This document shows, one piece after another, positions 855-61,853 of a stretch of DNA of 64,000 bases. Position numbers and translations under genes: made by a program. The notes below the pieces were generated by a model, which was not told the origin of the DNA, did no database searches, and saw nothing but the letters and a program-made list of their open reading frames with translations. The stretch covers positions 279,397-343,396 of the forward strand of contig CAKUMB010000001.1 of assembly GCA_934667475.1 (NCBI GenBank). The letters are read 5' to 3'. How positions within the stretch are numbered: the first letter of the stretch is position 1; each line of letters opens with the position of its first letter. This DNA comes from an uncultured Muribaculaceae bacterium (GTDB lineage: Bacteria > Bacteroidota > Bacteroidia > Bacteroidales > Muribaculaceae).

Positions 855-875
855 ATTAATAGGTGTTGCTTTTGC

Positions 876-1691: not shown

Positions 1692-1802
1692 CGTTTTTTT
1701 TGTTTAGGCTTTTAATGCATTACAATGGTGGGGCGCAAACGCCCCCGCAACTGCAAAATAACTAAAAATAGAACTCTGCTCCAACATTTTTTACGTAAAA
1801 GA

Positions 1803-1835
1803 TTGGTAGTGTAAACGACAAAATAACTACATTTG
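1803..1835 (+). promoter_or_regulatory. candidate Bacteroidota sigma-A promoter for PBP1A gene (-7 TAcaTTTG, upstream TTG)
   Basis: TACATTTG at 1828-1835, about 20 bp upstream of ATG 1854. TTG at 1803-1805 sits at the appropriate -33 spacing. Confidence 0.3.
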
Positions 1836-1853
1836 CAACCATAAATTATTTTA

Positions 1854-4433: not shown

Positions 4434-4508
4434 TGCGCTAAACCACACATAGAGCAGAATCGACATAATCAATGATTATAACACATACAGTAAATAGCAA
4501 TAAATCAA

Positions 4509-6101: not shown

Positions 6102-6137
6102 GCCATCGGGCCGGCATTAGGCTGATAACAACCATAG

Positions 6138-6198
6138 GCGCAACCGCGGTGCCACTCCTGCAAGCGGGCAGGAAGGCACATGCGGTTGCGCTTTTTTG
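6138..6198 (+). terminator. rho-independent terminator after nadB (long imperfect hairpin + T-run)
   Basis: GCGCAACCGC (6138-6147) pairs with GCGGTTGCGC (6182-6191). Nested inner pairs GTGCC/GGCAC and CCTGC/GCAGG are present, and CTTTTTTG follows. Confidence 0.6.
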
Positions 6199-6296
6199 TG
6201 GGCCTGCGGCTTTGACGTTTGCCACTCATGCGTTTCTTTTGCAAAAGCAAGGCTGGCCGCGCAGGCCTGCCGGCAACGATACTTCTATACAAAAGC

Positions 6297-7673
6297 ATGT
6301 CCGCTATGAACCAAGAAACCCTGTATGCCCTTGTGAGGCAAATCAACACCGACTATCTCGGCCCTGTGCTGGTGTTCGCACTGCTGGGCGCGGGCATGTA
6401 TTTCACCATCCGTCTGCGCTTTGTGCCCAAATACTATTGGCGTGCCATTAAAGCCATGTTTGCCGCTTCGCACGACAAAAGCCGCGCCACCGACTTGGGT
6501 GGCATGAGCCCCATTCAGGCGCTGTCCACCGCCATCGCTTCGCAGGTGGGCACGGGCAACATTGTGGGTGTGGCCATGGCGGTGATGATGGGCGGCCCGG
6601 GCGCGCTGTTCTGGCTGTGGATGGGCGCGCTGCTGGGCATGAGCACCAATTTTGCCGAGGCTGTGCTGGGCATAGCCTACAAGCGTCACACCGCCGACGG
6701 CCACCTGGTGGGCGGCCCCGCATTCTACATTCGCTACGGTCTGGGCAGCCACGTGCTGGCGGCCGTGTTTGCAGTGTGCTTCATTCTGGCTGTGGTGATA
6801 GGCATCATGGTGCAGGCCAACTCCATTAGCACCGCCGTCACCACCCTGTTTCCCGACAGCCTCAATCCAATTTGGATGGGCGTAGCCCTGGCCGTGCTGC
6901 TGGCCTTTGTGCTGGTGGGCGGCATAGGCCGCATAGCCTCGTTTGCCGAGCGTGTGGTGCCGCTCATGGCAGGCCTGTTTCTGGTGGGCAGCCTCATTTT
7001 CATTGCCATGCATCTGCCGCGCCTCATTCCGGCCCTGACGAGCATTGTGAGCTGTGCGTTCACTCCCAAGGCCGGTGTGGGCGGAGCGGCCGGCATTGCC
7101 GTGATGACTGCCGTGCGCTATGGCGTGAGCCGCGGCCTCTTCAGCAACGAGGCCGGCCTGGGCACCACGCCCCACGCCCATGCCATAGCCAAGGTGAAGC
7201 ACCCCTATGAGCAGGGCATGATGGCAATTATCAGCATAGGCGTCGACGTGCTGGTGTGCACCTTCACCGGGCTGGTGCTGCTGCTGTCGGGCGTGCTCGA
7301 CGCCCCCAATGGGCGCGTGGGCATCCAGCTGGTGCAGTCGGCATTCGACTCCTCGTTTGGCGCGGCGGGCACGTGGCTCATAGCCGTGTCGCTGTTTTTC
7401 TTCGCCCTCACCACCATAGTGGGCTGGTACTTTTTTGCGGCGCAAAACGTGCGCTACCTGTGGGGCGAGAAGCCCATACGCGCCTACCGTCTGGTGGTTC
7501 TCGCGCTTGTGGTGGTGGCCTCGGTGGTCGAGGTTCCACTCATTTGGGAACTGTGCGACACCTTCAACTTCTTTGTGGTGGTCCCCAACATCATTGCCCT
7601 TGTGTGGCTATCGCCCAAAGTGGCCGACGAGGTGGAACGCATGCGCGACGCCTTGGGCAAACACAAGCAGTGA
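6297..7673 (+). CDS. alanine/glycine:cation (sodium) symporter, AGCS family
   Basis: About 458 aa and polytopic. Conserved AGCS segments are present (GGMSPIQALSTAIASQVGTGNIVGVA, GGPGALFWLWMGALLGM). Start chosen at MSAMNQETLY; the ORF track begins earlier, at 6219. Confidence 0.85.
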   Translation: MSAMNQETLYALVRQINTDYLGPVLVFALLGAGMYFTIRLRFVPKYYWRAIKAMFAASHDKSRATDLGGMSPIQALSTAIASQVGTGNIVGVAMAVMMGGPGALFWLWMGALLGMSTNFAEAVLGIAYKRHTADGHLVGGPAFYIRYGLGSHVLAAVFAVCFILAVVIGIMVQANSISTAVTTLFPDSLNPIWMGVALAVLLAFVLVGGIGRIASFAERVVPLMAGLFLVGSLIFIAMHLPRLIPALTSIVSCAFTPKAGVGGAAGIAVMTAVRYGVSRGLFSNEAGLGTTPHAHAIAKVKHPYEQGMMAIISIGVDVLVCTFTGLVLLLSGVLDAPNGRVGIQLVQSAFDSSFGAAGTWLIAVSLFFFALTTIVGWYFFAAQNVRYLWGEKPIRAYRLVVLALVVVASVVEVPLIWELCDTFNFFVVVPNIIALVWLSPKVADEVERMRDALGKHKQ

Positions 7674-13181: not shown

Positions 13182-13871
13182 ATGAAAGTCAAAATACATC
13201 GCGAAGGCCAGAACATAATATTTGTCCTCCTGTTCATATTGCTGGCCATTAATGTGCCGGCATATATGTTCATCGACTACCGCCCGATTTCCATTGCCAT
13301 GATAGTGGTGTCGGTGGTGATGTTTTTGCTCGTGGTAAACTTCTTCCGTCTGCCCAAGCGCCACTTCAAGCACTGCGACGACCCCCTGGCCGTGGTGGCA
13401 TCGGTTGATGGCACTGTGGTGGCCCTCGAAGAGGTGTATGAGGACGAGTATCTGCACCGCAACATGATTCAGCTGTCGATATTCATGTCGGTGTTCAACG
13501 TGCATGCCAACTGGACCCCCGTGGCCGGCCTCGTGAAATATGTGAAGCACCACGCGGGTCGCTTCATGGCCGCCTATCTGCCCAAATCGAGCACCGAAAA
13601 CGAGCGTTCGGCCATAGTCATTGAGGCCGCCAACGGCAAGGATATTCTGGTGCGCCAAATCGCCGGTGCCGTGGCGCGCCGCATAGTCACCTACGTGGAG
13701 CCGGGCGAGCGTGTAGACTTCGACGACCACATCGGCTTCATAAAATTCGGCTCGAGGGTGGACGTGTATTTACCCCTCGACACTGAAATCTTCGTTAAAC
13801 TCGGCGACAAGACGTGGGGCGGCGAAACCCTTGTGGCCCGACTCAAACCCGCCGGCGAGCGTGAAGCATAA
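13182..13871 (+). CDS. psd: phosphatidylserine decarboxylase proenzyme
   Basis: 229 aa, the short Bacteroidota-type Psd. The conserved C-terminal GFIKFGSRVDVYLP (G-S-R cleavage region) is present. It is paired with pssA. Confidence 0.88.
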   Translation: MKVKIHREGQNIIFVLLFILLAINVPAYMFIDYRPISIAMIVVSVVMFLLVVNFFRLPKRHFKHCDDPLAVVASVDGTVVALEEVYEDEYLHRNMIQLSIFMSVFNVHANWTPVAGLVKYVKHHAGRFMAAYLPKSSTENERSAIVIEAANGKDILVRQIAGAVARRIVTYVEPGERVDFDDHIGFIKFGSRVDVYLPLDTEIFVKLGDKTWGGETLVARLKPAGEREA

Positions 13872-13901
13872 ATCCAAAACGCAGAAAAATAGAGCAATAA
13901 T

Positions 13902-14645
13902 ATGAGCAACATAGCAACAGCGATTAAAAACAGCATTCCCAACGCCATAACCAGCCTCAACCTGCTGTGCGGCGCACTGGCCTGCGTGGCCGCCTTCAGC
14001 GCACTCGACCCTGTGCTCACCATTGGCGGCAGCCACGTGCTGGTGGGCTACGAAGTGGCCTTCATGCTGATAGCGCTGGCCGCCGTGGCCGACTTCCTCG
14101 ACGGCTTTGTGGCGCGCCTCATAGGAGCCGTGAGCGGCATAGGCAAGGAGCTTGACTCGCTCAGCGACCTCGTGAGCTTCGGCCTTGCCCCGGCTATGGT
14201 GCTCTACAACCTGATGCGCGCGGCCAACCCCGACAGCCTGTTGTGCTTCGCTGCCATGATTATCCCCGTGTTTGGCGCGCTGCGCCTGGCCAAGTTCAAC
14301 GTCGACACCACCCAGAGCACCACATTCCGTGGCTTGCCCATCCCCTCCAATGCAATATTCTGGATAGGCTTCACTTCGTGGTATGCCACCCACCACAGTG
14401 TGAGCCAGTGGGTGGTGGTGGCACTTGTGGTGGTGCTGTCGCTGCTTATGGTGTGCAATCTGCGCATGTTCTCGCTCAAGCTGCACAGCCTGCGCCTTAA
14501 AGACAGCTACCGCCAGTGGCTGCTTGCAGTGGCCTTTGTGGCCTTTGTGGCCATCGACGGCCTCTCGGGCCTTGCATGGGCCATAGCCTTCTATGTGCTG
14601 CTCTCGGCCGTGGCCGGCACAGGCGCCGAAAATCCCAAGCACTAA
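13902..14645 (+). CDS. pssA: CDP-diacylglycerol--serine O-phosphatidyltransferase (CDP-alcohol phosphatidyltransferase family)
   Basis: 247 aa and polytopic. CDP-OH transferase motif DFLDGFVARL...GKELDSLSDLVSFG. Immediately downstream of psd. Confidence 0.88.
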   Translation: MSNIATAIKNSIPNAITSLNLLCGALACVAAFSALDPVLTIGGSHVLVGYEVAFMLIALAAVADFLDGFVARLIGAVSGIGKELDSLSDLVSFGLAPAMVLYNLMRAANPDSLLCFAAMIIPVFGALRLAKFNVDTTQSTTFRGLPIPSNAIFWIGFTSWYATHHSVSQWVVVALVVVLSLLMVCNLRMFSLKLHSLRLKDSYRQWLLAVAFVAFVAIDGLSGLAWAIAFYVLLSAVAGTGAENPKH

Positions 14646-47967: not shown

Positions 47968-48879
47968 GTGCACGGCTATGAGCCCGACGGCGTCACGCCC
48001 AGCGACAAAGAGCTTATGCTGTATGTGGTGTCGCGCGACGAAACTGGCGGACTGGTGGTGCAGGCCGTGAATGGCAAAAACATCGACAAGGGTGTGAACT
48101 GCGTGCCCTCGATAGCCAAGGGGAGCACCCTGATTAGGATGGGGCGCGCGGCCAGCGAGCTCGATGTGATGTCGCCGCAGTTCGAGGCACTGCCCACCAA
48201 GGCGCAGAACTATTGCCAAATATTCAAAATGCAAATTGAACAGAGCACCCTCATGCGCATGGCCAACAAAGAGGTGCAGTGGAACATGAGCGACCAGGAG
48301 GAGGCCGCCATCTACGACATGCGACTGGGCATGGAAAAGAGCTTCCTTTTTGGCGTGAAGCGCTCGCTGTGGGACAATGTGCGCAAGCAGACGCTGCTGT
48401 TCACGGGCGGCATCTGGTACCAGGCCGGCAAGACGTGGAACTACGATGACTCGTCGCTGACGCAAGACAGCATCATCGACATGATGCGCGAGGCTTTCAC
48501 AGGCAACGCGGGCAGCAAGCGCAAAATCCTGATTGGCGGCTCGGGTCTCATTGGCCGGCTCAACAAGCTCGACTACAGCAAGGTGATAACCTCGCGCGAC
48601 ACCGTGAGCAAGTGGGGCATCGACTTCAATGAGCTGCGCTCGAAGTTTGGCACGCTTTATGTGATGCTGAGCGAGGTGTTCGACGAGTGCGGCATGGCCG
48701 ACAACGGCATAGTCATCGACCCCGAATATATGCAGAAGTACAGCCACGTGCCTTTCAGCACCGAGGCTCTCAACCTAAAGGCCAGCGGTGTGCGCAATGT
48801 CGACGCCCTAGTGCTCACCGAGGCCAGTTGCCTGGTGCTGCGCTACCCTAAGGCCCACATGCGCATCATCATGCAGTAG
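47968..48879 (+). CDS. hypothetical protein (downstream segment; GTG start directly after the amber codon, or readthrough/pseudogene)
   Basis: 303 aa in the same frame as 47467-47964. There is no ATG until about 48016. A hairpin terminator follows at 48931-48975. Confidence 0.55.
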   Translation: MHGYEPDGVTPSDKELMLYVVSRDETGGLVVQAVNGKNIDKGVNCVPSIAKGSTLIRMGRAASELDVMSPQFEALPTKAQNYCQIFKMQIEQSTLMRMANKEVQWNMSDQEEAAIYDMRLGMEKSFLFGVKRSLWDNVRKQTLLFTGGIWYQAGKTWNYDDSSLTQDSIIDMMREAFTGNAGSKRKILIGGSGLIGRLNKLDYSKVITSRDTVSKWGIDFNELRSKFGTLYVMLSEVFDECGMADNGIVIDPEYMQKYSHVPFSTEALNLKASGVRNVDALVLTEASCLVLRYPKAHMRIIMQ

Positions 48880-48992: not shown

Positions 48993-50069
48993 TCACTCCA
49001 TGTTCTGCTCAATCCACTGTTCGGGTTGCGGGTTGAAGCGTATTTTGCCGGGATCAATGGCCAGGCGATAGATTTCGCCGCGCTTGCCGGCTATCGCATA
49101 CGGGTTTTCGCCATTGGCTTCGGGCCACTTCACCGTGCGCGCCACAATGCGGTTGATTTTGCTCAGTGCCTGGTTGCGCAGTTCGGTGCTGCACATATAT
49201 TGCTCCACCTTTCGCATGGCTTCGGCCCGCGGGCAGTCTTTCAGACAACTGTAGATGGCGGCCAGCTCTCTGGAGTGGTCCACAAGGTCTTTGAGTCGCA
49301 CGCCCTCGGGGTGGCGCATGAAAAACATATACAGCATTTTCTGTATGCACGACATTTTCAGCTCCACCTCATCGTAGTCGGGCAGAATTATCTTGAAGTC
49401 GTTGTTCACCACAATGGGGCTTTCCATCGTGGGAGAGATTACTATTTTTCCTATAAGGGCTTTGCGAAGCTTTTCGGTGGGGTCGCTGTGGGTGCGCAAA
49501 ATGTATTCGGTAATCAGGCTGCGCAGCTGGTCTTCGAGCTTTTCATACTCCTCATCGATTTCATGCTCTTGAGCCATCTCTTGGTAGTCGCCATGTGGCG
49601 GCGCGGCGCAAAAGCTGAATCCCTTCTTCGAGCGGATTGGCGCATGGCTGTAGTCATAGTCGTCTATAAAAACAGCAAGCCTTCGTCGTAAATCGCTGTA
49701 GTCGACGATGTCATCGCATTGGTCCAGCCTGTCCACATACACCTCTTTGTCGCCGACCTGGGTGTCGAAAATGTCGGTGGATTGGGTCAGCAATTCTTCC
49801 GACAAACAATCAACCGCCGTCCCCATGGAGCCATGCAAGTGTCGCACGCGTATGCTCAGTTTGGCGTCGTGCCCTATGTTCACAACGTTGAAGCGCTTCG
49901 TCTCAACGCTTATGTCATAGTCTCTGGGCCGCTTGTCGACCACAATCTGTGGCTTGGCCTGCCCTAGCAGGGAGTCGCTGTGCAGGTGGCTGCGCAGCTC
50001 GTTGGCTATTCGCTCGCTGCTTACGCGTATGGTCACCGTTGGGTTTAGTGATTCGTTTGTCGTTGTCAT
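48993..50069 (-). CDS. hypothetical protein (partner of upstream vWA gene)
   Basis: 358 aa with no recognisable motifs. It is co-oriented with the vWA gene and 45 bp downstream of it. Confidence 0.55.
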   Translation of the reverse strand: MTTTNESLNPTVTIRVSSERIANELRSHLHSDSLLGQAKPQIVVDKRPRDYDISVETKRFNVVNIGHDAKLSIRVRHLHGSMGTAVDCLSEELLTQSTDIFDTQVGDKEVYVDRLDQCDDIVDYSDLRRRLAVFIDDYDYSHAPIRSKKGFSFCAAPPHGDYQEMAQEHEIDEEYEKLEDQLRSLITEYILRTHSDPTEKLRKALIGKIVISPTMESPIVVNNDFKIILPDYDEVELKMSCIQKMLYMFFMRHPEGVRLKDLVDHSRELAAIYSCLKDCPRAEAMRKVEQYMCSTELRNQALSKINRIVARTVKWPEANGENPYAIAGKRGEIYRLAIDPGKIRFNPQPEQWIEQNME

Positions 50070-50114
50070 AAAAGAAGCTGTAGTGTTATGCTTTGTTTGT
50101 GTTATATGCGGTTT

Positions 50115-50834
50115 TCAGCGCTTAAAGAATCGTTTGTTGCGTGAGCGCTTCTGCATTATCCTTTCTTCGTCGCTCATCGACTCGTCGAGCATGAAAGCAA
50201 CCTGGTCGTTGGTCCAATCTTTGCTGCAATAGCATAAGCGAACGGCCATGTCTTTTACACCCGATTCCGACTTTTCGAATTCAATCGCGTTGTCGATCGA
50301 GAGGCCGTAGGCCACGCTTTCCACATCGTGGTCGGCGCCCATGTAGGCAAACATCCATCCCTCATTTTTATACGCCTCGACAAGGGCTTTTATTGCCTTG
50401 CGTGAGAATTCTTTCGACGCATTCTCATATCCGTCGGTGATGATGGTCACCTGCACCAAGGCGTTTTTGTTGTCGCCCACTATTTCGTGAAGTCGTGTGA
50501 TGCTGTTGCCCATGGCGTCGTAGAGTGGCGTCATGCAGCATGGACGGTAGTCCTTCATCGCCAGTGGCTTGGCCTCTTCTACTGGTGTGTTGTCGTAAAT
50601 CGTCTGCAGTGAGCACCCGCAGAATGCCACAAGCGTCACCATCGATTTCTCGTTGGCCTTGTGGGTCTGCTGGCGTGCGCGAATGCTGCCAATGGTTTCA
50701 TTCACTGCATCCACGGCATATTTGCGAATGCTGCCCATCGACCCGCTGCGGTCAAGAATGATGAGGTTGTAGTTGGTGATCACTTTTTCCTCTGCGGCTT
50801 TGCTGCCTGCTGCTGTGTTGTTGTTCTCGTTCAT
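50115..50834 (-). CDS. von Willebrand factor type A (vWA) domain protein, TerY-like size
   Basis: 239 aa. It has a canonical MIDAS (LIILDRSGSMGS), with the downstream T and D residues conserved (ITDGYEN). Confidence 0.8.
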   Translation of the reverse strand: MNENNNTAAGSKAAEEKVITNYNLIILDRSGSMGSIRKYAVDAVNETIGSIRARQQTHKANEKSMVTLVAFCGCSLQTIYDNTPVEEAKPLAMKDYRPCCMTPLYDAMGNSITRLHEIVGDNKNALVQVTIITDGYENASKEFSRKAIKALVEAYKNEGWMFAYMGADHDVESVAYGLSIDNAIEFEKSESGVKDMAVRLCYCSKDWTNDQVAFMLDESMSDEERIMQKRSRNKRFFKR

Positions 50835-52740: not shown

Positions 52741-52899
52741 GAGGCACGGGTGCAACTGTTTTGTGCCGGTGCAGCGTCGAATAATTAAGTGTCTGGTGGT
52801 CGCGTTTGCTTTTTTTAACGCCAAATCAAATCCCGCACCGCACTTTATCGATAAATTTGCTATTTAATATATAGTATGCAACACAATTCGGCAATCAAG

Positions 52900-54363
52900 A
52901 TGAAATCAACATTGCGACTTTTGACTATTGCGGCCGTGGCTCTGATGGCTCTGCTGGGCGCCACTGCGTGCGGCGGACGCGGCGGCGCACTCGACAAGGC
53001 CATCCGTTCGGCCATGATTAGCGGCGACACCACCCGCAAGGCCTACGATGGCATTTGCCAGCTGATAAAGGACAACCCCGACAAGTATGCCGCCTATCTC
53101 ACCGACGGTGGGCAAATCAACGTTGAAGAGCTGGCCAAGAAAGTGACTGAGGTGGGCCACAGCCTGCGTCCGCCTGTCGACTGGGACATAACCCGCTATG
53201 GCGCAGCCAGCCTCACACTCACGGTGTATTTCGAGCGCAGCGGCTCAATGGTGCCCTACGATAGCCGCTCGGGAGGCGGCCAGCTGAAGGCGGCCGTCAA
53301 CGACCTGATTAACGCCTTCCCGTCGCACTCGGCTGTGAAAATCAACATAGTGAACGATAACATATATCCCTACAGCGGCACCGTCGATTCGTTTCTGCAA
53401 GACCGCGACATCTATGCCAGCACCGCCGGCACGGGCGATGCCAGCCACACCGACTTCAAGCTGATTTTCGACAAAATCATCAGTGCCCAGCCGGCCAACA
53501 ATGTGAGCATCCTGGTGACCGACATGATTTATTCGCCTGCCGACACCCACGATGTGAGCGTGGAGAAAATATTTCACGAGGAAAATGGCGTGGCCGCATC
53601 TATATTCCGCAACCACAATGGCAAGTCGGTGATAGTGAGCCAGCTGATGGGTGACTACGACGGCAAGTATTACCCTTACAACGGCCAGCCGTTTGACTAC
53701 CACGGCAAGCGTCCCTTCTACCTTATTGTGATAGCCGACGCCAAGACCATCGACCAGATGGCTGCCGACCCGGCGTATGCTGCCGTGGTGCATCCTGCCG
53801 CTGCTGTCAACACCTATCGCTTCAACCAAGGCGAGGCCCAGGTGGCCTTCAAGGTGATACCCGACTGGAAGGACAATGCCGGCCGCTTCCGCGTGTCGCA
53901 CGACGATCCGCACTTGCTCACCGGCTGCACCCCTGACCGCACCACGGGCAAGCTGCGCTTCAGCCTGGCCGCCAACCTTGGTGCGCTGCAAAAGGATGCT
54001 GCGTTTTTTGCCAACGGGTCGCACTTCGCAGTGCGCTCGCTCAATGGCTTCGACGTTGCAGTCAGGCCCATCGGACAGTCCGACCTCAGTGCCAACAACA
54101 AAGCCTACCTCGACGGCATGACACACATAATCACCCTCACGGGAAAGATGACCTCGCCGCAAGACGATGTGACTATTTCCATCGACAACGACTTTCCGCA
54201 GTGGATAACGGCCTCTACGGCCACCGACGACACCAATCCCTCGGCGTCTGGCTTCGCCACCACCACGTTTGGCCTCGACAGCTTTATGCGCGGTATCTAC
54301 AGCGCGTTTGCTGGTGGCAACACCCGCTACTACACCAAAATTGAACTGAAACTGAAAAATTAA
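52900..54363 (+). CDS. vWA-like domain lipoprotein (divergent MIDAS ExSGS)
   Basis: About 487 aa with a lipoprotein signal (LLGATAC). LTLTVYFERSGSMVPY resembles the vWA beta1-MIDAS segment, with E in place of D. It is the first gene of the tight seven-gene operon. The ORF track starts at 52876. Confidence 0.65.
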   Translation: MKSTLRLLTIAAVALMALLGATACGGRGGALDKAIRSAMISGDTTRKAYDGICQLIKDNPDKYAAYLTDGGQINVEELAKKVTEVGHSLRPPVDWDITRYGAASLTLTVYFERSGSMVPYDSRSGGGQLKAAVNDLINAFPSHSAVKINIVNDNIYPYSGTVDSFLQDRDIYASTAGTGDASHTDFKLIFDKIISAQPANNVSILVTDMIYSPADTHDVSVEKIFHEENGVAASIFRNHNGKSVIVSQLMGDYDGKYYPYNGQPFDYHGKRPFYLIVIADAKTIDQMAADPAYAAVVHPAAAVNTYRFNQGEAQVAFKVIPDWKDNAGRFRVSHDDPHLLTGCTPDRTTGKLRFSLAANLGALQKDAAFFANGSHFAVRSLNGFDVAVRPIGQSDLSANNKAYLDGMTHIITLTGKMTSPQDDVTISIDNDFPQWITASTATDDTNPSASGFATTTFGLDSFMRGIYSAFAGGNTRYYTKIELKLKN

Positions 54364-54375
54364 CATCAAACGAAT

Positions 54376-54825
54376 ATGCAAAAAGACACAATCTATCTCA
54401 CAGCCGGCATTGTGGTCACAGTGCTGTTCTGGCTGCTGCGCGTGCAGCTGATTGAACTGGTGTACACTGCCCCTGGCTATAGCGACAACATGTATAACCT
54501 GGGCATCTACGACACCGTGGCCATGGTAATCACCGCCGTGGCGTGGGTGGGCGCAGGCATTTACTATTATGTGATTAATTCAGTCCGCTTTGACCGCTGG
54601 TGGCATTGGCTGGCTGTGCTGGCCGTGGTGGCCGTGCTCACTCCAGTGGTGTGCTACAGTGTCAACACCAGCGTGTTCAGCGACAACGGCGGCATCAGCT
54701 ATCCCGCCGAGACGGCCGCGTTCCAAACGGCCACGGTGCTCTACTCGGTGCTGATGTTTGTGGTGGCGTCATTCTCCATTCGCTGGTGGAGCAGCAACTG
54801 CCGCCACACCCCAATACCGCAATAA
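54376..54825 (+). CDS. small polytopic membrane protein (4 predicted TM)
   Basis: 149 aa with four hydrophobic segments. Separated by 12 bp from the previous gene. Confidence 0.6.
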   Translation: MQKDTIYLTAGIVVTVLFWLLRVQLIELVYTAPGYSDNMYNLGIYDTVAMVITAVAWVGAGIYYYVINSVRFDRWWHWLAVLAVVAVLTPVVCYSVNTSVFSDNGGISYPAETAAFQTATVLYSVLMFVVASFSIRWWSSNCRHTPIPQ

Positions 54826-54864: not shown

Positions 54865-56397
54865 ATGAGACTATTCATATTTGCAATAGGCGGCACCGGC
54901 TCAAGGGTGCTGAAGTCGCTGCTGATGCTGTCGGCCGCTGGTGTGCGCCCGGTTGGCCCCGACGGCAAACCGGTGCCCAATCTCGAACTGGTGCCCATCA
55001 TCATCGACCCCCACAAGAGCAACGCCGACCTCAAGCGCACCGAAACGCTGCTGAGCGCCTACCGCATGCTGCGCCGCCAAATTCATGGCGACGAGGTGAA
55101 CGCCAGCGGCTTTTTCGCCGCCAAGATATCCACTTTGCGCGACATCATGCAGGGCTCGCCCGTGCCGCTCGACGACTCGTTTATATTCAACATGGCCGCC
55201 GTGGGCAGCAAGAAGTTCCGCGACTTCATTTCCTACGACACCATGAATGAGCCCAACCAGGCGCTCACCTCGCTGCTCTTCGCCGACTATCAGCTTGAGA
55301 ACAAAATGAGCATCGGCTTCGTGGGCTCGCCCAACATAGGCAGTGTGGCGCTCAACGGCATAAAGGACAGCAACGAGTTTAAGGCGTTTACCAGCGTCTT
55401 TGCCGACGGCGACCGCATATTCTTCATAAGCTCGATATTCGGTGGCACTGGCGCAGCCGGTTTCCCCATATTGGTGAAAAACATACGCCAGGCTGCTGGC
55501 GCCGACATCAAAAACCGCGCCTTCCTGCAGACGGCCCCCATAGGCGGCCTCACTATGCTGCCCTATTTCAGCCTGATGCAGAGCGACGACAGCAGCGACC
55601 GCCGCATTGCCAGCAGCGACTTCATAGTGAAAACCCAGTCGGCGCTGGAATACTACAACCAAACCATCACGGGCGACAGCGGCAGTCAGGTGAACGCCAT
55701 CTACTACCTCGGCGACCACGGCCACGACGCCCCCTACAAATATGATCCGGGCGACAAGCAGGACCAGCACGACCCGGCCCACCTGGTGGAGTTGGTGGGC
55801 GCACTGGCCCCGCTCAACTTTGCCGGCCTGCCCGCCGACCAGCTTGTTGACCCCGTCACACGCGCGCCGCTACCCACCAAGGCCTTTGAGTATGGCCTCG
55901 ACGACGACACCGACGACGTGTGCTTTGCCTCGTTGGGCAAGCAGACGCGCGACCTGGTGTATGAGAGCATGGTGAAGTTTCACCTGCTGTTCATATTCCT
56001 GCGCACGGGCTTCAGCGGCATGATAGGGCAGGGCTTCACCGAAGACGCACCCAAAATCACGCGCGACTTCACCGCCACGCAGTTCTACCGCACCCTCACC
56101 GACTCGTTTTTTGGCGGCTACACCGAGTGGCTGAGCGAGCTCAAGTTCAACCGCCGCCACGTGGAGCCGTTCTGCAGCGGCGTGTTCGACATGACCAGCG
56201 CCATCAAGGGCGTGCACACACGCAAGGGCTTCTTCGGTGCCAAAACGGTGAACTGCGACACCTTTAAGAGCGAGATGAACAAGCTTAGCCGCGACAATCA
56301 CGACTACGCGGGCCGCACGCTGGAGTTCAAACTCATGGATTTGTTTAACAAGGCCGCAGCCAAGATAATTGCCGAGCGCTACGACAACATCAACTAA
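54865..56397 (+). CDS. FtsZ/tubulin-superfamily GTPase-like protein (divergent; Tubulin_2/FtsZl-like)
   Basis: 510 aa. The N-terminus has a T1-like glycine loop (MRLFIFAIGGTGSRV). A T4-like signature (RIFFISSIFGGTGAAGFPILVKNI) follows about 185 aa later and is comparable to FtsZ FIAAGMGGGTGTGAAP. A long C-terminal extension is present. It is not the canonical ftsZ. Confidence 0.72.
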   Translation: MRLFIFAIGGTGSRVLKSLLMLSAAGVRPVGPDGKPVPNLELVPIIIDPHKSNADLKRTETLLSAYRMLRRQIHGDEVNASGFFAAKISTLRDIMQGSPVPLDDSFIFNMAAVGSKKFRDFISYDTMNEPNQALTSLLFADYQLENKMSIGFVGSPNIGSVALNGIKDSNEFKAFTSVFADGDRIFFISSIFGGTGAAGFPILVKNIRQAAGADIKNRAFLQTAPIGGLTMLPYFSLMQSDDSSDRRIASSDFIVKTQSALEYYNQTITGDSGSQVNAIYYLGDHGHDAPYKYDPGDKQDQHDPAHLVELVGALAPLNFAGLPADQLVDPVTRAPLPTKAFEYGLDDDTDDVCFASLGKQTRDLVYESMVKFHLLFIFLRTGFSGMIGQGFTEDAPKITRDFTATQFYRTLTDSFFGGYTEWLSELKFNRRHVEPFCSGVFDMTSAIKGVHTRKGFFGAKTVNCDTFKSEMNKLSRDNHDYAGRTLEFKLMDLFNKAAAKIIAERYDNIN

Positions 56398-56408: not shown

Positions 56409-59400
56409 ATGAGTAAAATTCTGTCATATAACAATAAGACCACCAAGACGGCCGACCGCGACTGGATTCCTGTTGAGCCGTATGACGACGATGACATAAA
56501 AGCCATACGCGACCCCAACGGCGGCATGTCGGAAAATCCGCACACCGCCATTCCCAGCCCGTTTGCGCAACTCGACCTTGTGAAAAACGCCTTTGCCCAC
56601 CTTGCGGCAAGCATCAGCCTTGCCGGCACCATGATGGACAAGCGCCTTGTGTCGACCGCCCTCGATGTGGCCCAGCTGCTGTTCAACTACGAGAGCCACC
56701 GCGACTATCTGCACATAGTGCGCTGGAACCGCGATGAGCAGATAGCGCGCCTCAAGAGCGAGCCCGAGCACCGCCTGTATGGCGACACACTCGACCTGTT
56801 TCTGCTCAGCGACACCAAGTATAACTTTAATCTGCTCACCGACTGGTATATAGTTATGTGGCACAACCGCGTGATTGGCGCCACATCGCCGTCATCGTTC
56901 ACAATGGGAGTGCCGCGCGAAAGCGAGGAGCCCATAGGCGACATAATGGTGGAGCAGGGTGTTCCGCTCTTTGCCGCCGACACGCGTCACTTGTGGCAGC
57001 GCGACGCCGACTTCGTGCGCATGATGTATTTGCTGTTCAACGCCTATCCCGTGTTGCGCAAGTCGCTCACCGAGGTGTATGCCTACATGATTCGTAACCT
57101 CGACCCCATCCGCCAGCAGCGCCCCGAACTTTATGCCAGCCTTGTGGCTGCGGTCCCCAACATGGAGTCGTTCAGCCCCGAGACCGCCGACCGTGTGCTC
57201 GAACAGCTCGAAATGGACTACGACCCGTTTGCGGGCGACAACGAGATTACGCTGCTGGGCGCACGCCTTTATCACAAGCGCGCCGCCGACATAATGCGCG
57301 ATGTGGCTCAAAGCGACTTCATGCTTGCGCCCACGCTGCCGCAGCCTGCCGGCACGCGGCTGCCGCTGGTGTTGCGCACGGGCTTCAGCGGCAGCGCCGA
57401 CGCTTACAAATATGTCGACCGCCAGTGGAATAGCGCCACCGAGGTGCTTGCCGCGGGCGTTCCCATCGACCGGCGCAAGCTGCCCGACACGGCGGTGGAA
57501 TACCCGTTTGTCACCACATCCGACCTGCTCACGCCGTCGTTGGTGCGGCTTAGCGGACCGCTCGATGGCCACCACTACTTCGACGGCAACGCCAGCGGCC
57601 GTGGTGCGGAGGCCGAATATGGCTATCTGCTGCCTCTCACACCGCTGTTTTTCAAATATTTCACCGCGGCCGACCTGTGTGGCAAGGTGTGTGGGCGCAA
57701 CATGCTCGACATCGAGGAACGCACCGGCGGCGTGACGGTGACTCTGCGCATTCCTGTGCGCAAGCGCTGCATTGAGTTCACACGCAACTACCACGTTGTC
57801 ACCGACCCCGCCTGGACGTTCGACGAACGCCGCGGCAGTGGCCGCCTGGTGACCGACGCTGTGATGAGTGCAGCTGTGTTCCCGTTTGTCAAAACTGGCC
57901 AGGCCGACGGCTACACCGTGCAGCTCTTTGCCATGGGTGCGAGCTGCGGCAGCAGCCTACAGTTCTATGCCAACGGACTGGACTCCGACTCCATTGGCGT
58001 CAGCAGCCGCTTGCGGACAAATTCCACATATTCCACCGAATACTTCGACGTGAAGGGCTCTTTCGACCTTGTCGAGGCCCGTGTCAACACCGCTTCGGCC
58101 GGCACCTGCAGCGGCTTCATAGTGCCGCGCTGGCAGCCATATGCGCCGGGCTCGCGCCAACTGGTGTTTGCCGTTGACTTCGGTACCACCAACAGCCACC
58201 TCGAGTGGGCCGAGCGCGGTCATCAGAGCGAGCCGCTCGACTTTGGCTTCTGCGACGGCTCCACGCTCATTGCCCCGCTGCTCAAGCGCGGCTCGCTGCT
58301 CATTGCCGAGCAGCTGCAGCGCATCGAGTTCCTACCCAGTGCCATCGACAGCGTGTATGGCTTCCCGCTGCGCAGCGCACTGGCCAGCAATGCCGTCAAC
58401 GACGGCGGCACACGCCTGTGGAGCAACGTCAACATCCCGTTCCTCTACGAGCGCCAGTATTTCGACGGCTATGATGTGGCCACCAACCTCAAGTGGAAGG
58501 GCGACACCGCACTCAGCCGCGAGTTTCTGCGCGAGCTGGCCTTGCTCATCCGTGCCAAGGCGCTCATCGAGAATGCCGACCTTGGCAAGACCGATGTGGT
58601 GTATTTCTTCCCTGTGAGCATGGGCGGCAGCGACCGCCGCAAGCTGCAAGACACCTGGGAGGAGCTCTATCGCACCTATATCGGGCCCGACACCGACAAT
58701 CTGCACGCCTATCCCGAGTCGATAGCCCCGGCATACTACTACAAGGGTGCCGATGTGGCCGGGTCGAGTTTCGTGACCATCGACATTGGTGGCGGCACGA
58801 GCGACACGGTGATATATCAGCCCACGCCCGACCGCCTCGACAGTGTGCCTGTGGCGGTGTCGTCGTTCCGCTTTGCGGGCAACGCCATATTCGGCGACGC
58901 CTTCACCGAGCGCGATGCCGACAACAACCCACTAATTGCGCACTATGCCGAATACTTCAGCCGCCTGGTCACCAAGAATCCCGACATCACCTATCTCAAC
59001 AGCATATTGCAGTCGGTGCTCAAGCAAAAGCGGTCGGAAGACGTCAACGCTTTCCTATTCTCAGTCGAGAATGTGGAGCAGCTGCGTCAGCTGCAGGAGG
59101 TGGACCGCAACCTGTATAGCTACGACGCGCTGCTGCGCAACGACGACCAGCGCAAGCTGGTGTTTATGTATTTCTACGCTGCCATCATCTACTACACGGC
59201 GCAGTCGATGCTGGCGCGCGGCTACGAGCCGCCCAAGCAAATCTACTTCAGCGGCACCGGCTCGAAGATATTGAGCATATTGGGCACCACGCAGCAGGTG
59301 CGTGAGTTCACGCAGCGCATCATCGAGGAGGTGATGCAGAAGCGTTACACCGAACCGTTCGACATCAAGGTGGAGCGCGAGTGTCCCAAGCAGGTCACTT

Positions 59401-59846
59401 GCCGCGGCGGTGTGCGGCTTGAAAATGAGCGCCTCGACCACAAGGCCGACACCAGCGCCTATTCGGCCCGCAACATCAACCGCCTAAAGTACTGCTTCTC
59501 GATGATAGGCAGCGAAAGCCTCACCTACGGCCAGGTCAACCAGCTCGACACACGCGGCCGCATTGCCGACAGTGTGCGCGAGTTCAACCGCTTCTTCTTG
59601 TCGCTGTGCGACAATGAGACCAAGGATGAGTTTGGCATCGAGGGCAAAGTGTTCCGCCTGTTTGCCAGCGTGGTCAACAACGGCCTTGACAACTACCTCA
59701 CCGCCGGCATCAACAGTTTCTTGAAGGGCCGCTACGAGGAGGCCGATGTGGTGGAAGATGTGCCGTTCTTCTATCCTGTGATAGGTGTCATCCGCTACAA
59801 TCTGCTTAAAAACCTGTGCAACGAGGTGATCTCTAATATACAATGA
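56409..59846 (+). CDS. large protein with uncharacterised N-terminal ~580 aa and C-terminal Hsp70/actin-like (ASKHA) ATPase domain
   Basis: 1145 aa. Three ASKHA motifs appear in canonical order. Phosphate-1 is VFAVDFGTTNSHLEW (aa ~589; compare DnaK IGIDLGTTNS). Phosphate-2 is VTIDIGGGTSDTVIY (aa ~790; compare FDLGGGTFD). The adenosine/connect-2-like motif is IYFSGTGSKI (aa ~944; compare VGGSTRIP). 12 bp separate it from the FtsZ-like gene. Confidence 0.75.
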   Translation: MSKILSYNNKTTKTADRDWIPVEPYDDDDIKAIRDPNGGMSENPHTAIPSPFAQLDLVKNAFAHLAASISLAGTMMDKRLVSTALDVAQLLFNYESHRDYLHIVRWNRDEQIARLKSEPEHRLYGDTLDLFLLSDTKYNFNLLTDWYIVMWHNRVIGATSPSSFTMGVPRESEEPIGDIMVEQGVPLFAADTRHLWQRDADFVRMMYLLFNAYPVLRKSLTEVYAYMIRNLDPIRQQRPELYASLVAAVPNMESFSPETADRVLEQLEMDYDPFAGDNEITLLGARLYHKRAADIMRDVAQSDFMLAPTLPQPAGTRLPLVLRTGFSGSADAYKYVDRQWNSATEVLAAGVPIDRRKLPDTAVEYPFVTTSDLLTPSLVRLSGPLDGHHYFDGNASGRGAEAEYGYLLPLTPLFFKYFTAADLCGKVCGRNMLDIEERTGGVTVTLRIPVRKRCIEFTRNYHVVTDPAWTFDERRGSGRLVTDAVMSAAVFPFVKTGQADGYTVQLFAMGASCGSSLQFYANGLDSDSIGVSSRLRTNSTYSTEYFDVKGSFDLVEARVNTASAGTCSGFIVPRWQPYAPGSRQLVFAVDFGTTNSHLEWAERGHQSEPLDFGFCDGSTLIAPLLKRGSLLIAEQLQRIEFLPSAIDSVYGFPLRSALASNAVNDGGTRLWSNVNIPFLYERQYFDGYDVATNLKWKGDTALSREFLRELALLIRAKALIENADLGKTDVVYFFPVSMGGSDRRKLQDTWEELYRTYIGPDTDNLHAYPESIAPAYYYKGADVAGSSFVTIDIGGGTSDTVIYQPTPDRLDSVPVAVSSFRFAGNAIFGDAFTERDADNNPLIAHYAEYFSRLVTKNPDITYLNSILQSVLKQKRSEDVNAFLFSVENVEQLRQLQEVDRNLYSYDALLRNDDQRKLVFMYFYAAIIYYTAQSMLARGYEPPKQIYFSGTGSKILSILGTTQQVREFTQRIIEEVMQKRYTEPFDIKVERECPKQVTCRGGVRLENERLDHKADTSAYSARNINRLKYCFSMIGSESLTYGQVNQLDTRGRIADSVREFNRFFLSLCDNETKDEFGIEGKVFRLFASVVNNGLDNYLTAGINSFLKGRYEEADVVEDVPFFYPVIGVIRYNLLKNLCNEVISNIQ

Positions 59847-59847
59847 T

Positions 59848-60666
59848 ATGGAACTTACGAAAATCAAGAGAACGATAATTGCCGCGGTGCTTGCGCTTGC
59901 CACGGTGCTCGGCGCTGCAGCGCAGACCGACACGGTGGCAAGTGCAGAGCCTGTCAATCCTGTTGGCAGTGCCGATTCGGCCGCGGCCGTGCTGCCACCC
60001 GACACTGTGGCCGCCGTGCCGCCTGCCAAGGAGGCTCAGCCCGCCGCCGACCGCACTCGCGACTTGATGGCCGGCTGCACCCTGGCCGCCCTTGTGCTTG
60101 GCTTGGCCGGCACGGTGATGGCCATGTCGGCCCGCCGCCGCGTGCGCGAAACGCAATCGGCCATCAACACTTGTGCCGAGCGCATCAATGAGCTCGTCAA
60201 CGCCGTTACAGCCCTTAATGCCGACGTCGAGCACCTCAGCGCCGAGGTCGATGGCCTGCGCCGCCAGCCGCTGCAGCCTGCGCCGGCCCGTAAGCCTGCC
60301 GTGTGCAAACCGCCACGGGCCACAGCGGCCCCGGCCGCGCAGCACCCGCAGGTGTTGTATCTCAGTTGTCCCGATGCCGAAGGCTACTTTGGCCGTGCTA
60401 CGGCCAGTGCCGTGGCTGGCAACTCGGTGTTTGTGCTGCGCACCACCGACGGCCGCACCGGCACGTTTGGCGTGATTGACGATGCCGCCGTGCACAGCAT
60501 GGCGCTGATGATGCCCACCGCCACGCTCACTGGGGCTTGCGCCGGCACCGGCATACAGGTGTCTGGCCATGCGCGCCGCATAGTCACCGACCAGCCGGGC
60601 ACCGCCGTGCTCAAGGGTGGCAGGTGGCACGTTGAGACTAAAGCCGTAATTCACTACGAACCATAA
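59848..60666 (+). CDS. bitopic membrane protein with coiled-coil segment
   Basis: 272 aa. A signal/TM region is followed by a second TM (LMAGCTLAALVLGLAGTVMAM), a coiled-coil (INELVNAVTALNADVEHLSAEVDGLRRQ), a P/A-rich linker and a C-terminal domain. The start is 2 bp after the previous stop. Confidence 0.55.
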   Translation: MELTKIKRTIIAAVLALATVLGAAAQTDTVASAEPVNPVGSADSAAAVLPPDTVAAVPPAKEAQPAADRTRDLMAGCTLAALVLGLAGTVMAMSARRRVRETQSAINTCAERINELVNAVTALNADVEHLSAEVDGLRRQPLQPAPARKPAVCKPPRATAAPAAQHPQVLYLSCPDAEGYFGRATASAVAGNSVFVLRTTDGRTGTFGVIDDAAVHSMALMMPTATLTGACAGTGIQVSGHARRIVTDQPGTAVLKGGRWHVETKAVIHYEP

Positions 60667-61205
60667 TGAAGTGCTATTGTCCTAAATGCGGGCGCAAGAT
60701 AGAGGTCACCGCCCAGGAGGCTGCGCGCCTTGGCGGACACCTTGTGTGCCCGCAGTGCCTGGCGCGCGTTGATGTGGCTGTGCCAAAGCCCACGGCTGCG
60801 GCAGTTGCCGAGCCGCCTGCCACCCCCAAGCCGCGCCAGCAGGCTCAGGCTCCTGCGGCAGGAGGCCGCTTCTGCCCCAAGTGCGGGGCCAAGGTGCGTG
60901 CCACCGATGCCTTCTGCAAGTCGTGCGGGGCGAGTCTGGGCGCAACGCGGCGCAAGTCGGATGTGGGCACGCCGCCGCCATACCGCAGTCAGCGCCGTGC
61001 AGCCGCACCGGCTCCTGCCTACCGCGCACCGCGCACCGTCGCGCGCCCGTCAGTGCCGCGCCAGGCCTTTGCGCGTCGCCCGTCCAGTAGAAGTGAAGCC
61101 AAAGCTTCCACTTCCGTTGGCGGACTGGGCTGCATGTGGCGCACCGCCGTGGGCGTGGCCGTTGCCTTTGCGCTCTATGCGATGCTTGGCCTGGCCTTTC
61201 AGTAG
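60666..61205 (+). CDS. MJ0042-type zinc-ribbon protein with C-terminal TM anchor
   Basis: 179 aa. The N-terminal CPKCGRK...CPQC zinc ribbon is followed by a second CPKCGAK...CKSCG ribbon, a P/A-rich linker and a C-terminal TM. Its start overlaps the previous stop. Confidence 0.6.
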   Translation: MKCYCPKCGRKIEVTAQEAARLGGHLVCPQCLARVDVAVPKPTAAAVAEPPATPKPRQQAQAPAAGGRFCPKCGAKVRATDAFCKSCGASLGATRRKSDVGTPPPYRSQRRAAAPAPAYRAPRTVARPSVPRQAFARRPSSRSEAKASTSVGGLGCMWRTAVGVAVAFALYAMLGLAFQ

Positions 61206-61250
61206 AACCGATAAAGTAAGAAACACCCTAATTTTTCCCCAGTAACAACG

Positions 61251-61853
61251 ATGAAGATAACTTGCCCGAAATGCGGATATGTGACCGAGATTTCCGAGAG
61301 CGAACTCAGCGCCGTCAATCACACAATCGTGTGCCCGCAGTGCATGTCGCAGCTTAAGGTGGATGGCGACTATGCCTATATTCCCACCGACAGCCAGACG
61401 TTTGACCCGCAGCCCGAACCGCCTGCCGCCGAGGTGGAGCGCGAGCCGTGCGACGACGGCAATGGCGGCTGGGTGGCCGCCGACGGGGTCGACGACCCTC
61501 TGATGGCCGATGCCATCGAATACATTAAGATGTGCAATGCCATATCGGTGCCAATGCTGCAGCGCTATCTGCAAATCAGTGCCGACCGCGCTGCCCAGCT
61601 CATGAAGCAGCTCGAGCAGAAAGGGGTGGTGGGCCCATACACGGGCGGACCGCGCACCATTCTAATTCCGCACAGCAGCGACCCCTTCGCCCCCACGCCG
61701 CGCAACCGCGCCGAAACGCAAATGCTCAGAGAGTTGCGCCAGCGCATGGCCAGTGGCGATGCCAAGACGCGCATGTTCAACTGCTCGGGCTGCTCCATTG
61801 TGCTGTTTGGACTGCTGGTCGTCCTTCTGTTGGCGCAATTGTGTACGCATTAA
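61251..61853 (+). CDS. zinc-ribbon protein with FtsK-gamma-like winged-helix and C-terminal TM anchor
   Basis: 200 aa. The N-terminal CPKCGY...CPQC is paralogous to the previous ORF. The middle region AIEYIKMCNAISVPMLQRYLQISADRAAQLMKQLEQKGVVGP resembles the FtsK gamma wHTH (…VSxLQRRxRIGYNRAARLIEQME..GIV). The C-terminus carries CSGCS plus a TM. Confidence 0.6.
   Translation: MKITCPKCGYVTEISESELSAVNHTIVCPQCMSQLKVDGDYAYIPTDSQTFDPQPEPPAAEVEREPCDDGNGGWVAADGVDDPLMADAIEYIKMCNAISVPMLQRYLQISADRAAQLMKQLEQKGVVGPYTGGPRTILIPHSSDPFAPTPRNRAETQMLRELRQRMASGDAKTRMFNCSGCSIVLFGLLVVLLLAQLCTH

Follow-up and report, generated by a model that had tools for sequence, protein, structure and literature searches.

A compact tubulin/FtsZ-superfamily protein in a conserved gene cassette of Bacteroidota, with relatives on plasmids and a mobilizable element

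Organization of the locus

The 64,000-nucleotide (nt) stretch of DNA analysed here, called the window throughout, belongs to an uncultured Muribaculaceae bacterium (GenBank assembly GCA_934667475.1, contig CAKUMB010000001.1, positions 279,397 to 343,396 of the forward strand). Seven genes, A to G, are packed on its plus strand at gaps of −1 to 45 nt and form the cassette described in this report (Table 1). The subject of the analysis is the third of them, gene C, an open reading frame (ORF) with an ATG start whose translation of 510 amino acids (aa) opens with MRLFIFAIGGTGSRVLK. A preliminary description of this DNA, made from the letters alone, had taken gene C for a divergent member of the FtsZ/tubulin family with an operon-specific partner. 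The cassette adjoins rimP-nusA-infB, with 188 nt between gene G and rimP, and there are no mobility genes within 10 kb of it.

Table 1. Genes of the cassette and conserved elements of the gene C and gene D proteins, in window coordinates
Feature	Position	Strand	Residues	Description
Gene A	52876..54363	+	495 aa	Lipoprotein (signal peptide and Cys32); the gene caller starts at 52900 (487 aa)
Gene B	54376..54825	+	149 aa	Membrane protein; four predicted transmembrane (TM) segments from a hydropathy scan
Gene C	54865..56397	+	510 aa	Tubulin-like protein (ORF, model, profile searches)
Gene C, N-terminal domain			~1-330	GTPase fold
Gene C, C-terminal domain			~359-510	Helical, family-specific
Gene C, T1 loop GGTGSR	54889..54906	+	9-14	G9, G10, G12, R14 in 48/48; T11 in 43/48; FtsZl1 has the same GGTG
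Gene C, T2 equivalent			D48	Invariant; placed by secondary-structure order
Gene C, T3-like loop GFVGSPNIG	55315..55341	+	151-159	G151, F152, G154, G159 invariant; P156 in 47/48; hhalign to FtsZ
Gene C, T4 signature loop GGTGAAG	55441..55461	+	193-199	G193, G194, T195, G196, G199 invariant; site of the Pfam and hhalign matches
Gene C, T5-like PYF	55561..55569	+	233-235	Follows strand 226-231; P233, Y234 invariant; F235 in 43/48
Gene C, T6 equivalent			280-284	Y280-Y281-x-G283-D284; placed by secondary-structure order
Gene C, H7-like segment	55765..55821	+	301-319	Q301-x-(N/D)303-x-A-H306-x-x-E309 ... D/N318-F319; model helices 307-321
Gene D	56409..59846	+	1145 aa	Cytoplasmic; conserved N-terminal peptide, alpha/beta and beta-rich middle, C-terminal ASKHA domain
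Gene D, N-terminal motif	56538..56594	+	44-62	P-x-TAIPSPFAQLDLVKNAF
Gene E	59848..60666	+	272 aa	Membrane protein; N-terminal hydrophobic segment, TM 73-91, short helical stretch, conserved C-terminal domain
Gene F	60666..61205	+	179 aa	Double zinc ribbon (Zn_Ribbon_1, E=6.4e-11; DZR), C-terminal TM 156-174; start overlaps the gene E stop
Gene G	61251..61853	+	200 aa	Zinc ribbon, FtsK-gamma winged helix (FtsK_gamma, E=1.1e-14), C-terminal TM 180-198

Gene C and its relatives

A search of a collection of 5.8 billion proteins returned 2637 homologs of gene C. The best 120 match over the full length with 59–100% identity, and those with a given source name are Muribaculaceae proteins called 'hypothetical protein'. 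The profile search of 1.84 billion cluster representatives (clustered at 50% identity) gave 1923 relatives at E ≤ 1e-3, of which 551 reach E ≤ 1e-30; with few exceptions, they are 460–530 aa long and match end to end. Conservation was counted in an alignment of 48 representatives with a mean identity of ~35% to the window protein. Ten positions between residues 9 and 183 are invariant (G9, G10, G12, R14, D48, G151, F152, G154, G159 and D183), as are S190, I191, G193, G194, T195, G196, G199, P201 and R208 between residues 190 and 208, and P233, Y234, K256, Y263, Y264, G296, Q301 and E309 between residues 233 and 309. The invariant glycine motifs together with the number of homologs mean that the resemblance first noticed by eye is not a matter of chance, and the conservation indicates that gene C is a real gene under selection. 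The ORF and the GGTGSR motif at residues 9–14 are as first described, and the motifs remain invariant in relatives of ~35% identity. Residues 186–207 read FFISSIFGGTGAAGFPILVKNI and hold the segment FGGTGAAG (residues 192–199), and residues 373–386 read FHLLFIFLRTGFSG. The protein ends in ...IIAERYDNIN, a tail of the form ERY(D/E)NIN that is kept only within Muribaculaceae.

Fold and nucleotide-pocket loops

The predicted structure of the gene C protein (pTM 0.84) was checked for a non-tubulin fold and showed tubulin/FtsZ topology with a Rossmann-like N-domain. The best Foldseek matches of the model are TubZ, FtsZ, CetZ and tubulin, with a probability of ~1.0. When the model was used in a fold search, 16 tubulin/FtsZ structures ranked above every other fold, with TubZ and PhuZ among the matches. 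Superposition covers ~190–220 residues on targets of 303–445 residues.

By sequence, the window protein has no match at E ≤ 0.1 to any model in Pfam, NCBIfam or PADLOC, and searches of solved-structure sequences gave 0 matches, whether gene C was used alone or as a profile. The connection to the superfamily comes through its relatives. Tubulin_2 (PF13809) is matched by 39 of the 48 distant relatives (best 3.3e-10, 40.2 bits) and Tubulin (PF00091) likewise by 39 of the 48 (best 1.4e-5). Aligning the gene C family profile with Escherichia coli FtsZ by hhalign pairs GFVGSPNIG with the T3 loop GAGANPEVG and FGGTGAAGFP with the T4 loop GGGTGTGAAP, which reproduces the T4 alignment that had been made by eye. 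The hhalign comparisons with the single sequences of E. coli FtsZ and Deinococcus deserti FtsZl1 are weak (E ~0.05, probability ~1%) and are of use for motif registration only. The strict PROSITE pattern for T4, [SAG]GGTG[SA]G, is matched inexactly, with F for the first residue and A for the last G. Three independent lines, the transitive Pfam matches, the fold and the motif registration, put the gene C protein in the tubulin/FtsZ superfamily.

The glycine-rich motifs do not fall outside the nucleotide pocket: as the preliminary description had read them, they align to the nucleotide-binding loops T1 and T4. Equivalents of T2, T3, T5 and T6 are also conserved. Apart from T3 and T4, the mapping of conserved positions onto FtsZ elements follows the predicted structure and should be read as probable. 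The T5-like PYF would by the order of secondary-structure elements be the counterpart of 'KPF' in FtsZ. Within the H7-like segment, Q301 and E309 are present in 48/48 sequences and H306 in 45/48, while N stands at position 303 in 46 sequences and D in two, the window protein included.

C-terminal region and missing canonical elements

The resemblance to FtsZ and tubulin is confined to the N-terminal part. Past the H7-like helix there is a variable, indel-rich loop (322–338) and a short strand, and the region that follows is all-helical. The C-terminal ~150–250 aa are predicted to be helical, with helices at 359–381, 406–427, 464–475 and 486–505 in the model. FtsZ and tubulin have an alpha/beta C-terminal domain here, whereas the helical one of gene C is unrelated to FtsZ_C or Tubulin_C. 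The segment FHLLFIFLRTGFSG was considered as a TM helix and ruled out, as it lies within and just past a confident helix of a soluble helical domain (helices 359–381 and 383–386) and the hydropathy scan was negative.

A T7 synergy loop was looked for and not recovered: the 48-sequence alignment has no conserved NxDxx(D/E) motif after the H7-like helix, and E342 (41/48) is the sole acidic candidate. Canonical GTPase activation through longitudinal polymer contacts cannot be assumed for gene C. Nor is the protein FtsZ proper. It matches neither TIGR00065 or another NCBIfam model nor Pfam FtsZ_C, and its T1 loop is GGTGSR where FtsZ has GGGGxN. The candidate of a canonical FtsZ paralog was rejected on the missing FtsZ_C domain and T7 loop. 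As the preliminary description had noted, there is no FtsZ-type C-terminal peptide that could bind FtsA or ZipA, and the protein differs from FtsZ and TubZ in having neither this tail nor a TubR-binding one. Identity to CetZ, FtsZ, TubZ, PhuZ and BtubAB is 10–17%, and the C-terminal activation domain and T7 loop of these proteins were not recovered in gene C.

Relation to the FtsZ-like 1 group

The GGTG of the T1 loop had first been thought unusual; it is a hallmark of the FtsZ-like 1 (FtsZl1)/Tubulin_2 group (PMC2875224). In most FtsZl1 proteins T1 reads (I/V)G(L/V)GGTG and is followed by an S2 strand ending in D, whereas FtsZ has GVGGGGxN (PMC2875224, supplement alignment); examples are LYIGLGGTGMK ... 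IGFLGIDTD from Bacteroides caccae and VVIGLGGTGYE ... IRFLSIDTT (PMC2875224). Gene C reads FIFAIGGTGSR ... VPIIIDPH, which is the FtsZl1 pattern of hydrophobic-G-x-G-G-T-G with S2 ending in D. Pfam Tubulin_2 is the model for 'FtsZ-like' proteins (PMC9871819) and has a gathering threshold of 27 bits. The best-scoring relative of gene C (P0270, at the 40.2 bits given above) and a second (P0180, 27.5 bits) exceed it, a third (P0129) reaches 26.9 bits and most others score 20–26 bits, with local matches to model positions ~150–225 of 356. Precomputed PF13809 matches are listed for most relatives from Cytophagales (Rudanella, Dyadobacter, Fibrisoma, Larkinella, Tellurirhabdus) and Chitinophagales (Chitinophaga, Ferruginibacter). 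Some relatives carry the NCBI names 'tubulin-like domain-containing protein' or 'Tubulin/FtsZ family, GTPase domain'; in NCBIfam there is no model behind the name 'tubulin-like domain-containing'.

Besides the T1 GGTG after a hydrophobic strand and the S2 strand ending in D, the two families share the GGTG core of T4. In both, the FtsZ/tubulin C-terminal domain and recognisable T7 elements are lost and the C-terminal region is mainly helical, and in both the gene stands in an operon with membrane proteins; FtsZl1 operons also have a vWA-type protein, of which gene A is a candidate counterpart. The differences concern size and partners. FtsZl1 proteins are ~900–1100 aa long (910–1127 aa in the examples), with an extended coiled coil and a helical C-domain, whereas the gene C family has ~500 aa, a longest predicted helix of ~23 residues and no coiled coil. 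The gene C cassette has a giant protein of the ASKHA (actin/Hsp70/sugar-kinase) fold; FtsZl1 operons typically have a predicted P-loop GTPase, an OmpA protein and a protein kinase, none of which occurs in the cassette. The FtsZl1 family list of 2010 contains no gene C host genera, with no Prevotella, Chitinophaga, Dyadobacter, Spirosoma, other Cytophagales or Flavobacteria. We therefore place the gene C family on the margin of the Tubulin_2/FtsZl1 group, as a compact branch and not as a typical member. The proposal of a distinct branch is supported, but the branch is not wholly new: it borders on a group described in 2010, and relatives in other Bacteroidota are already auto-named tubulin-like.

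The partners of gene C

Gene A carries a vWA/MIDAS-like motif set, ERSGSM (120–125) ... T192-D193 ... D216, of which 16 homologs, with identities as low as 18%, all keep E120, S122, S124, M125 and D216. These motifs suggest a vWA fold; hhalign of gene A against the neighbouring vWA gene aligned only 12 columns.

Gene D contains an ASKHA-fold domain (~585–1010), a duplicated RNase-H-like ATPase fold with the phosphate-1 motif DxGxTN (DFGTTNS, 590–596) and the phosphate-2 motif DxGGGT (DIGGGTSD, 792–799). FtsA, MreB and actin are among its best structural matches, and comparison with solved-structure sequences, single and by profile, gave noise and a weak FtsA motif match only. In the N-terminal motif, P44, T46, A47, I48, P49, S50, P51, F52 and A53 are invariant in 28 sequences, and IPSP(F/L/W)A(R/Q) is kept in Rudanella, Chitinophaga, the mobilizable element and the Picosynechococcus plasmid described below. 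Residues 1–51, which include part of the motif, have pLDDT < 50 in the AlphaFold monomer model. The peptide could be where a partner docks, and this partner may be the tubulin-like protein.

Gene B keeps its size, position and TM pattern in Rudanella, Chitinophaga, Gloeothece and Picosynechococcus. Gene E follows gene D after a gap of 1 nt, and its C-terminal domain can be traced to Rudanella and Chitinophaga. Because BLAST recovers gene F homologs in Muribaculaceae loci only, gene F is accessory and not a core part of the cassette; gene G is lineage-restricted as well. Both are tail-anchored zinc-ribbon proteins (60666–61853, plus strand), one with a Pro/Ala-rich linker and the other tethering the DNA-binding FtsK-gamma domain to the membrane. 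The zinc ribbons and FtsK-gamma are the only Pfam matches of the cassette, and genes A–E gave nothing beyond weak noise. A hidden P-loop GTPase was ruled out, as none of the 12 window proteins scanned (genes A–G and five flanking genes) has a Walker A motif.

Distribution and mobility of the cassette

We screened 83 loci, of which 80 are genome loci (Muribaculaceae, Prevotella, Hoylesella, Leyella, Sodaliphilus) and three are copies of the window's own locus; the genome scan covered at most 599 pattern matches. The order A-B-C-D(-E) is kept in every locus that extends far enough, save one (L041) in which D was not detected. Gene B lies directly upstream of gene C in 81 of the 83 loci, and gene E homologs follow gene D in 73. 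The same order is found in Rudanella lutea and Chitinophaga sp. YR627, where gene C has 31% identity, gene D has 27% over ~1100 aa and gene A keeps E.S.SM and VSD. The operon-specific partner proposed at the outset is thus borne out as a set of conserved cassette partners. Within Bacteroidota the identity of gene C tracks taxonomy, from 59–71% in Muribaculaceae and 45–49% in Prevotellaceae to ~31% in Cytophagales/Chitinophagales, and the genomic neighbourhood of the cassette differs between lineages. The compact gene C branch is abundant in Bacteroidales of the human and animal gut (Muribaculaceae, Prevotella), and the cassette also occurs in soil Bacteroidota. Cultured strains with the branch include Prevotella koreensis, Hoylesella oralis, Rudanella lutea, Chitinophaga, Gloeothece PCC 7822 and Picosynechococcus.

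Outside Bacteroidota, the cassette is colinear on a plasmid of Picosynechococcus sp. PCC 73109 (CP014003.1). On a mobilizable plasmid of 47.5 kb from Gloeothece verrucosa PCC 7822 (NC_014503.1), it occupies 35.9–47.5 kb; B, C, D and E are colinear there, and an A-like gene lies upstream on the opposite strand. The window-family profiles recognise the Gloeothece plasmid proteins with E-values of 1.2e-54 (C), 1.3e-19 (D) and 1.5e-6 (A), and the gene A homolog has the canonical MIDAS-type set DGSGSM ... VTD. An additional membrane protein of 528 aa follows gene E on this plasmid.

In IMG/VR, gene C was found on 11 contigs; on nine of them A and D can be recognised as well, and on the other two D alone was detected beside C. 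The one inspected, IMGVR_UViG_2051223001_000039, encodes NikA/MobC, a MobA/VirD2 relaxase and a Bacteroidetes-type tyrosine integrase at 312–3865, directly upstream of a complete A-B-C-D. Despite the contig's entry as 'viral', the stretch resembles an integrative mobilizable element. Contigs from four samples have this same gene C match, at 36% identity and E 2e-88. A search of 50,697 phage genomes gave no match. The cassette is horizontally mobile and occurs in Bacteroidota, on cyanobacterial plasmids and on a mobilizable element.

Three contigs of the screen carry labels from other phyla, Wujia chipingensis and Agathobacter rectalis (Firmicutes) and Flexilinea sp. (Chloroflexota), with gene C identities of 98%, 91% and 45%, respectively. 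They are most likely mis-binned Bacteroidales contigs; the Wujia contig shares the window's flanking genes too. In Prevotella koreensis, the cassette is followed, in place of genes F and G, by a retropepsin-like aspartyl protease (13782–14336; gag-asp_proteas, E=7e-19) and a Zn_ribbon_4 protein, with a DDE transposase further downstream. The cassette of Rudanella lutea is closely preceded by a run of four OrfX-like genes (PF06597) at 734–7059.

Proposed mechanism and alternative explanations

The reading we favour, and consider moderately probable, is that the product of gene C binds GTP, belongs to the tubulin/FtsZ superfamily and serves as a subunit of a mobile, colinear five-gene module (A–E), a compact form of the vWA/FtsZl1-type machinery. 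Makarova and Koonin predicted such a vWA/FtsZl1 'membrane-associated machinery' in 2010 (PMC2875224). The reading starts from the observed fold, conserved loops, gene linkage, phyletic spread and mobility. Gene C would bind GTP through its N-terminal domain, which keeps loops T1 to T6 and the H7-like helix, and it might polymerise. With gene D it would build an assembly under nucleotide control, placed at the inner membrane on its cytoplasmic side, and the invariant N-terminal peptide of gene D may mediate the C–D contact. The four-TM protein of gene B and the bitopic protein of gene E would anchor the assembly and couple it across the membrane to the exported lipoprotein of gene A.

Several observations weigh against this reading. 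The model of gene C is of low confidence at residues 122–155 and 288–301, and its Foldseek TM-scores are low (0.23–0.41), because the N-domain alone superposes. The window protein itself matches PF00091 (12.4 bits, E=0.19) and PF13809 (10.4 bits, E=0.37) below threshold and locally, around residues 177–237, and the Pfam matches of its relatives are likewise local, covering ~60 residues around T4. The sole FtsZl1 member compared, the divergent Deide_2p00780 of D. deserti, gives E=3.5 with the gene C profile and E=0.049 over 36 columns around T4 with hhalign, a similarity not better than that to E. coli FtsZ. As gene C has no T7 loop, the canonical polymerisation-coupled GTPase mechanism may not apply. 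Finally, gene A has no Pfam VWA match and 0 matches among solved structures by sequence or profile.

A bolder version, which we put forward tentatively, is that the cassette is a previously unrecognised envelope-spanning machine in which a tubulin-fold GTPase and an actin/Hsp70-fold ATPase form an obligate pair, coupled through the four-TM and bitopic proteins to a periplasmic MIDAS lipoprotein. It would be a mobile 'two-cytoskeleton-fold' module exchanged between Bacteroidota and Cyanobacteria, and either a new defence/abortive-infection system or a membrane-remodelling device. The contact between C and D in such a machine might run through the IPSPFA peptide of gene D.

A biological-conflict (anti-phage/abortive-infection) role is possible, although we would not expect it. 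In such a role, the vWA protein would be the sensor of an invader; the two NTPases, tubulin-like and ASKHA, would be threshold switches or build a multimeric effector assembly. This alternative concerns the biological role of the cassette and is compatible with the explanation given above at the protein level. Copies of the cassette are the cargo of an integrative mobilizable element, others reside on cyanobacterial plasmids, one of them mobilizable, and the neighbourhood varies by lineage, all of which would suit such a role. Kaur, Burroughs, Iyer and Aravind described in 2020 tubulin-containing GAP1-N2/DO-GTPase systems, reported in Firmicutes and Actinobacteria, and the conflict systems of that study combine tubulin homologs, vWA proteins and HSP70 (PMC7159879). 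A tubulin homolog and a vWA protein share one neighbourhood in those systems and the HSP70 fold occurs in sister themes; they are often associated with membranes and commonly contain zinc ribbons, and zinc-ribbon proteins are also attached to the window cassette. However, the defining DO-GTPase and GAP1 are absent, as is an FNIII-repeat component; the window cassette offers no Walker A motif and no Pfam domain other than its zinc ribbons and FtsK-gamma. In the published systems tubulin and HSP70 belong to separate themes, whereas here the tubulin-like and ASKHA proteins always occur together and the hosts are Bacteroidota and Cyanobacteria. The composition is constant from Bacteroidales to cyanobacteria, with no variable effector domain, and neither PADLOC nor the phage genomes gave a match. 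The agreement of gene C identity with taxonomy within Bacteroidota suggests long vertical residence, and the window copy sits beside rimP-nusA-infB, away from mobility genes.

It is distinctly unlikely that gene C forms a housekeeping cytoskeletal polymer, a second FtsZ-like filament for division, shape or envelope growth in Bacteroidota with gene D as its actin- or FtsA-like membrane partner. The tubulin fold, an ASKHA partner whose best structural matches include FtsA, MreB and actin, the membrane proteins in the operon and the wide distribution within one phylum would all fit this role. A filament of this kind would need the FtsZ_C/Tubulin_C-type domain and conserved T7 loop for canonical protofilament contacts and GTPase activation, but gene C has neither, and the presence of the cassette on plasmids and a mobilizable element also argues against a housekeeping function. 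FtsZ-like families typically co-occur with conventional FtsZ (Makarova and Koonin 2010, PMC2875224), and the FtsZ of Bacteroides fragilis is present in their superfamily alignment (PMC2875224). The cassette also differs from the FtsZ–FtsA pair, a tubulin-fold protein with an ASKHA-fold membrane partner: the gene order is reversed, gene D is a protein of 1145 aa with a non-ASKHA N-terminal half of ~580 aa that sets it apart from FtsA, and the conserved short peptide of the cassette is on D and not on the tubulin-like protein.

We give very little weight to a TubZ/PhuZ-like motor for DNA segregation of mobile elements (type III partition). The plasmid and mobilizable-element copies, the structural matches to TubZ and PhuZ and the membrane-anchored FtsK-gamma DNA-binding protein downstream in the window bring it to mind, but there is no adjacent TubR-like adaptor, the invariant partners (a lipoprotein, membrane proteins and the 1145-aa ASKHA protein) are foreign to partition systems, most copies are chromosomal, the FtsK-gamma gene is lineage-restricted and phage genomes gave no matches. 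Least credible of all is that the tubulin likeness is a generic Rossmann-like similarity of an unrelated nucleotide-binding enzyme: the local, mostly sub-threshold Pfam matches of the family would allow it, but the tubulin/FtsZ structures outrank all other folds and Foldseek concurs, the superfamily-specific GGTG core of T4 and the T3 pattern G-x-x-x-P-x-x-G are invariant and align to FtsZ, and one relative clears the Tubulin_2 cut-off.

The superfamily and the broad FtsZ-like group are already known, and so are the automatic 'tubulin-like' names of some relatives. In the searchable literature and the 2010 family list, we found no description of the compact ~500-aa architecture, of a giant ASKHA-fold protein and a lipoprotein with a MIDAS motif as obligate partners, or of the spread over Bacteroidota, cyanobacterial plasmids and a mobilizable element; the searchable literature also gave no function for the cassette. 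The strict pairing of gene C with the ASKHA protein and the MIDAS lipoprotein makes a small system suited to genetics and reconstitution. It could reveal how a tubulin-fold GTPase works without a canonical T7 loop and C-terminal polymerisation apparatus, and could tell us if there is direct cooperation between tubulin-like and actin-like folds in bacteria. The annotation of gut metagenomes also gains, since hundreds of their 'hypothetical proteins' can be recognised as tubulin-like or ASKHA-fold members of the cassette.

Other features of the window

Upstream of the cassette, at 48993–50834 on the minus strand, lies a gene pair that a GH20 gene separates from the cassette. It encodes a cytoplasmic vWA protein of 239 aa (DRSGSM; VWA_2 E=0.004) and a protein of 358 aa. 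In another Muribaculaceae genome, a homolog with 52% identity to the small vWA protein is encoded downstream of the cassette (~9587, plus strand), which hints at a loose association between this protein and the cassette.

Further upstream, an ORF of 303 aa at 47968–48879 (plus strand), preceded by two small ORFs, has a precomputed Pfam match to SU10_MCP, the HK97-type phage major capsid protein. No other phage genes are within view, and the ORF may be what is left of a prophage or code for an encapsulin-like shell. The whole window was scanned for tRNAs and Rfam families, with no match. Between ~14000 and 20000 the GC content falls to 0.43–0.49 against ~0.58 elsewhere, and this stretch may be a foreign island.

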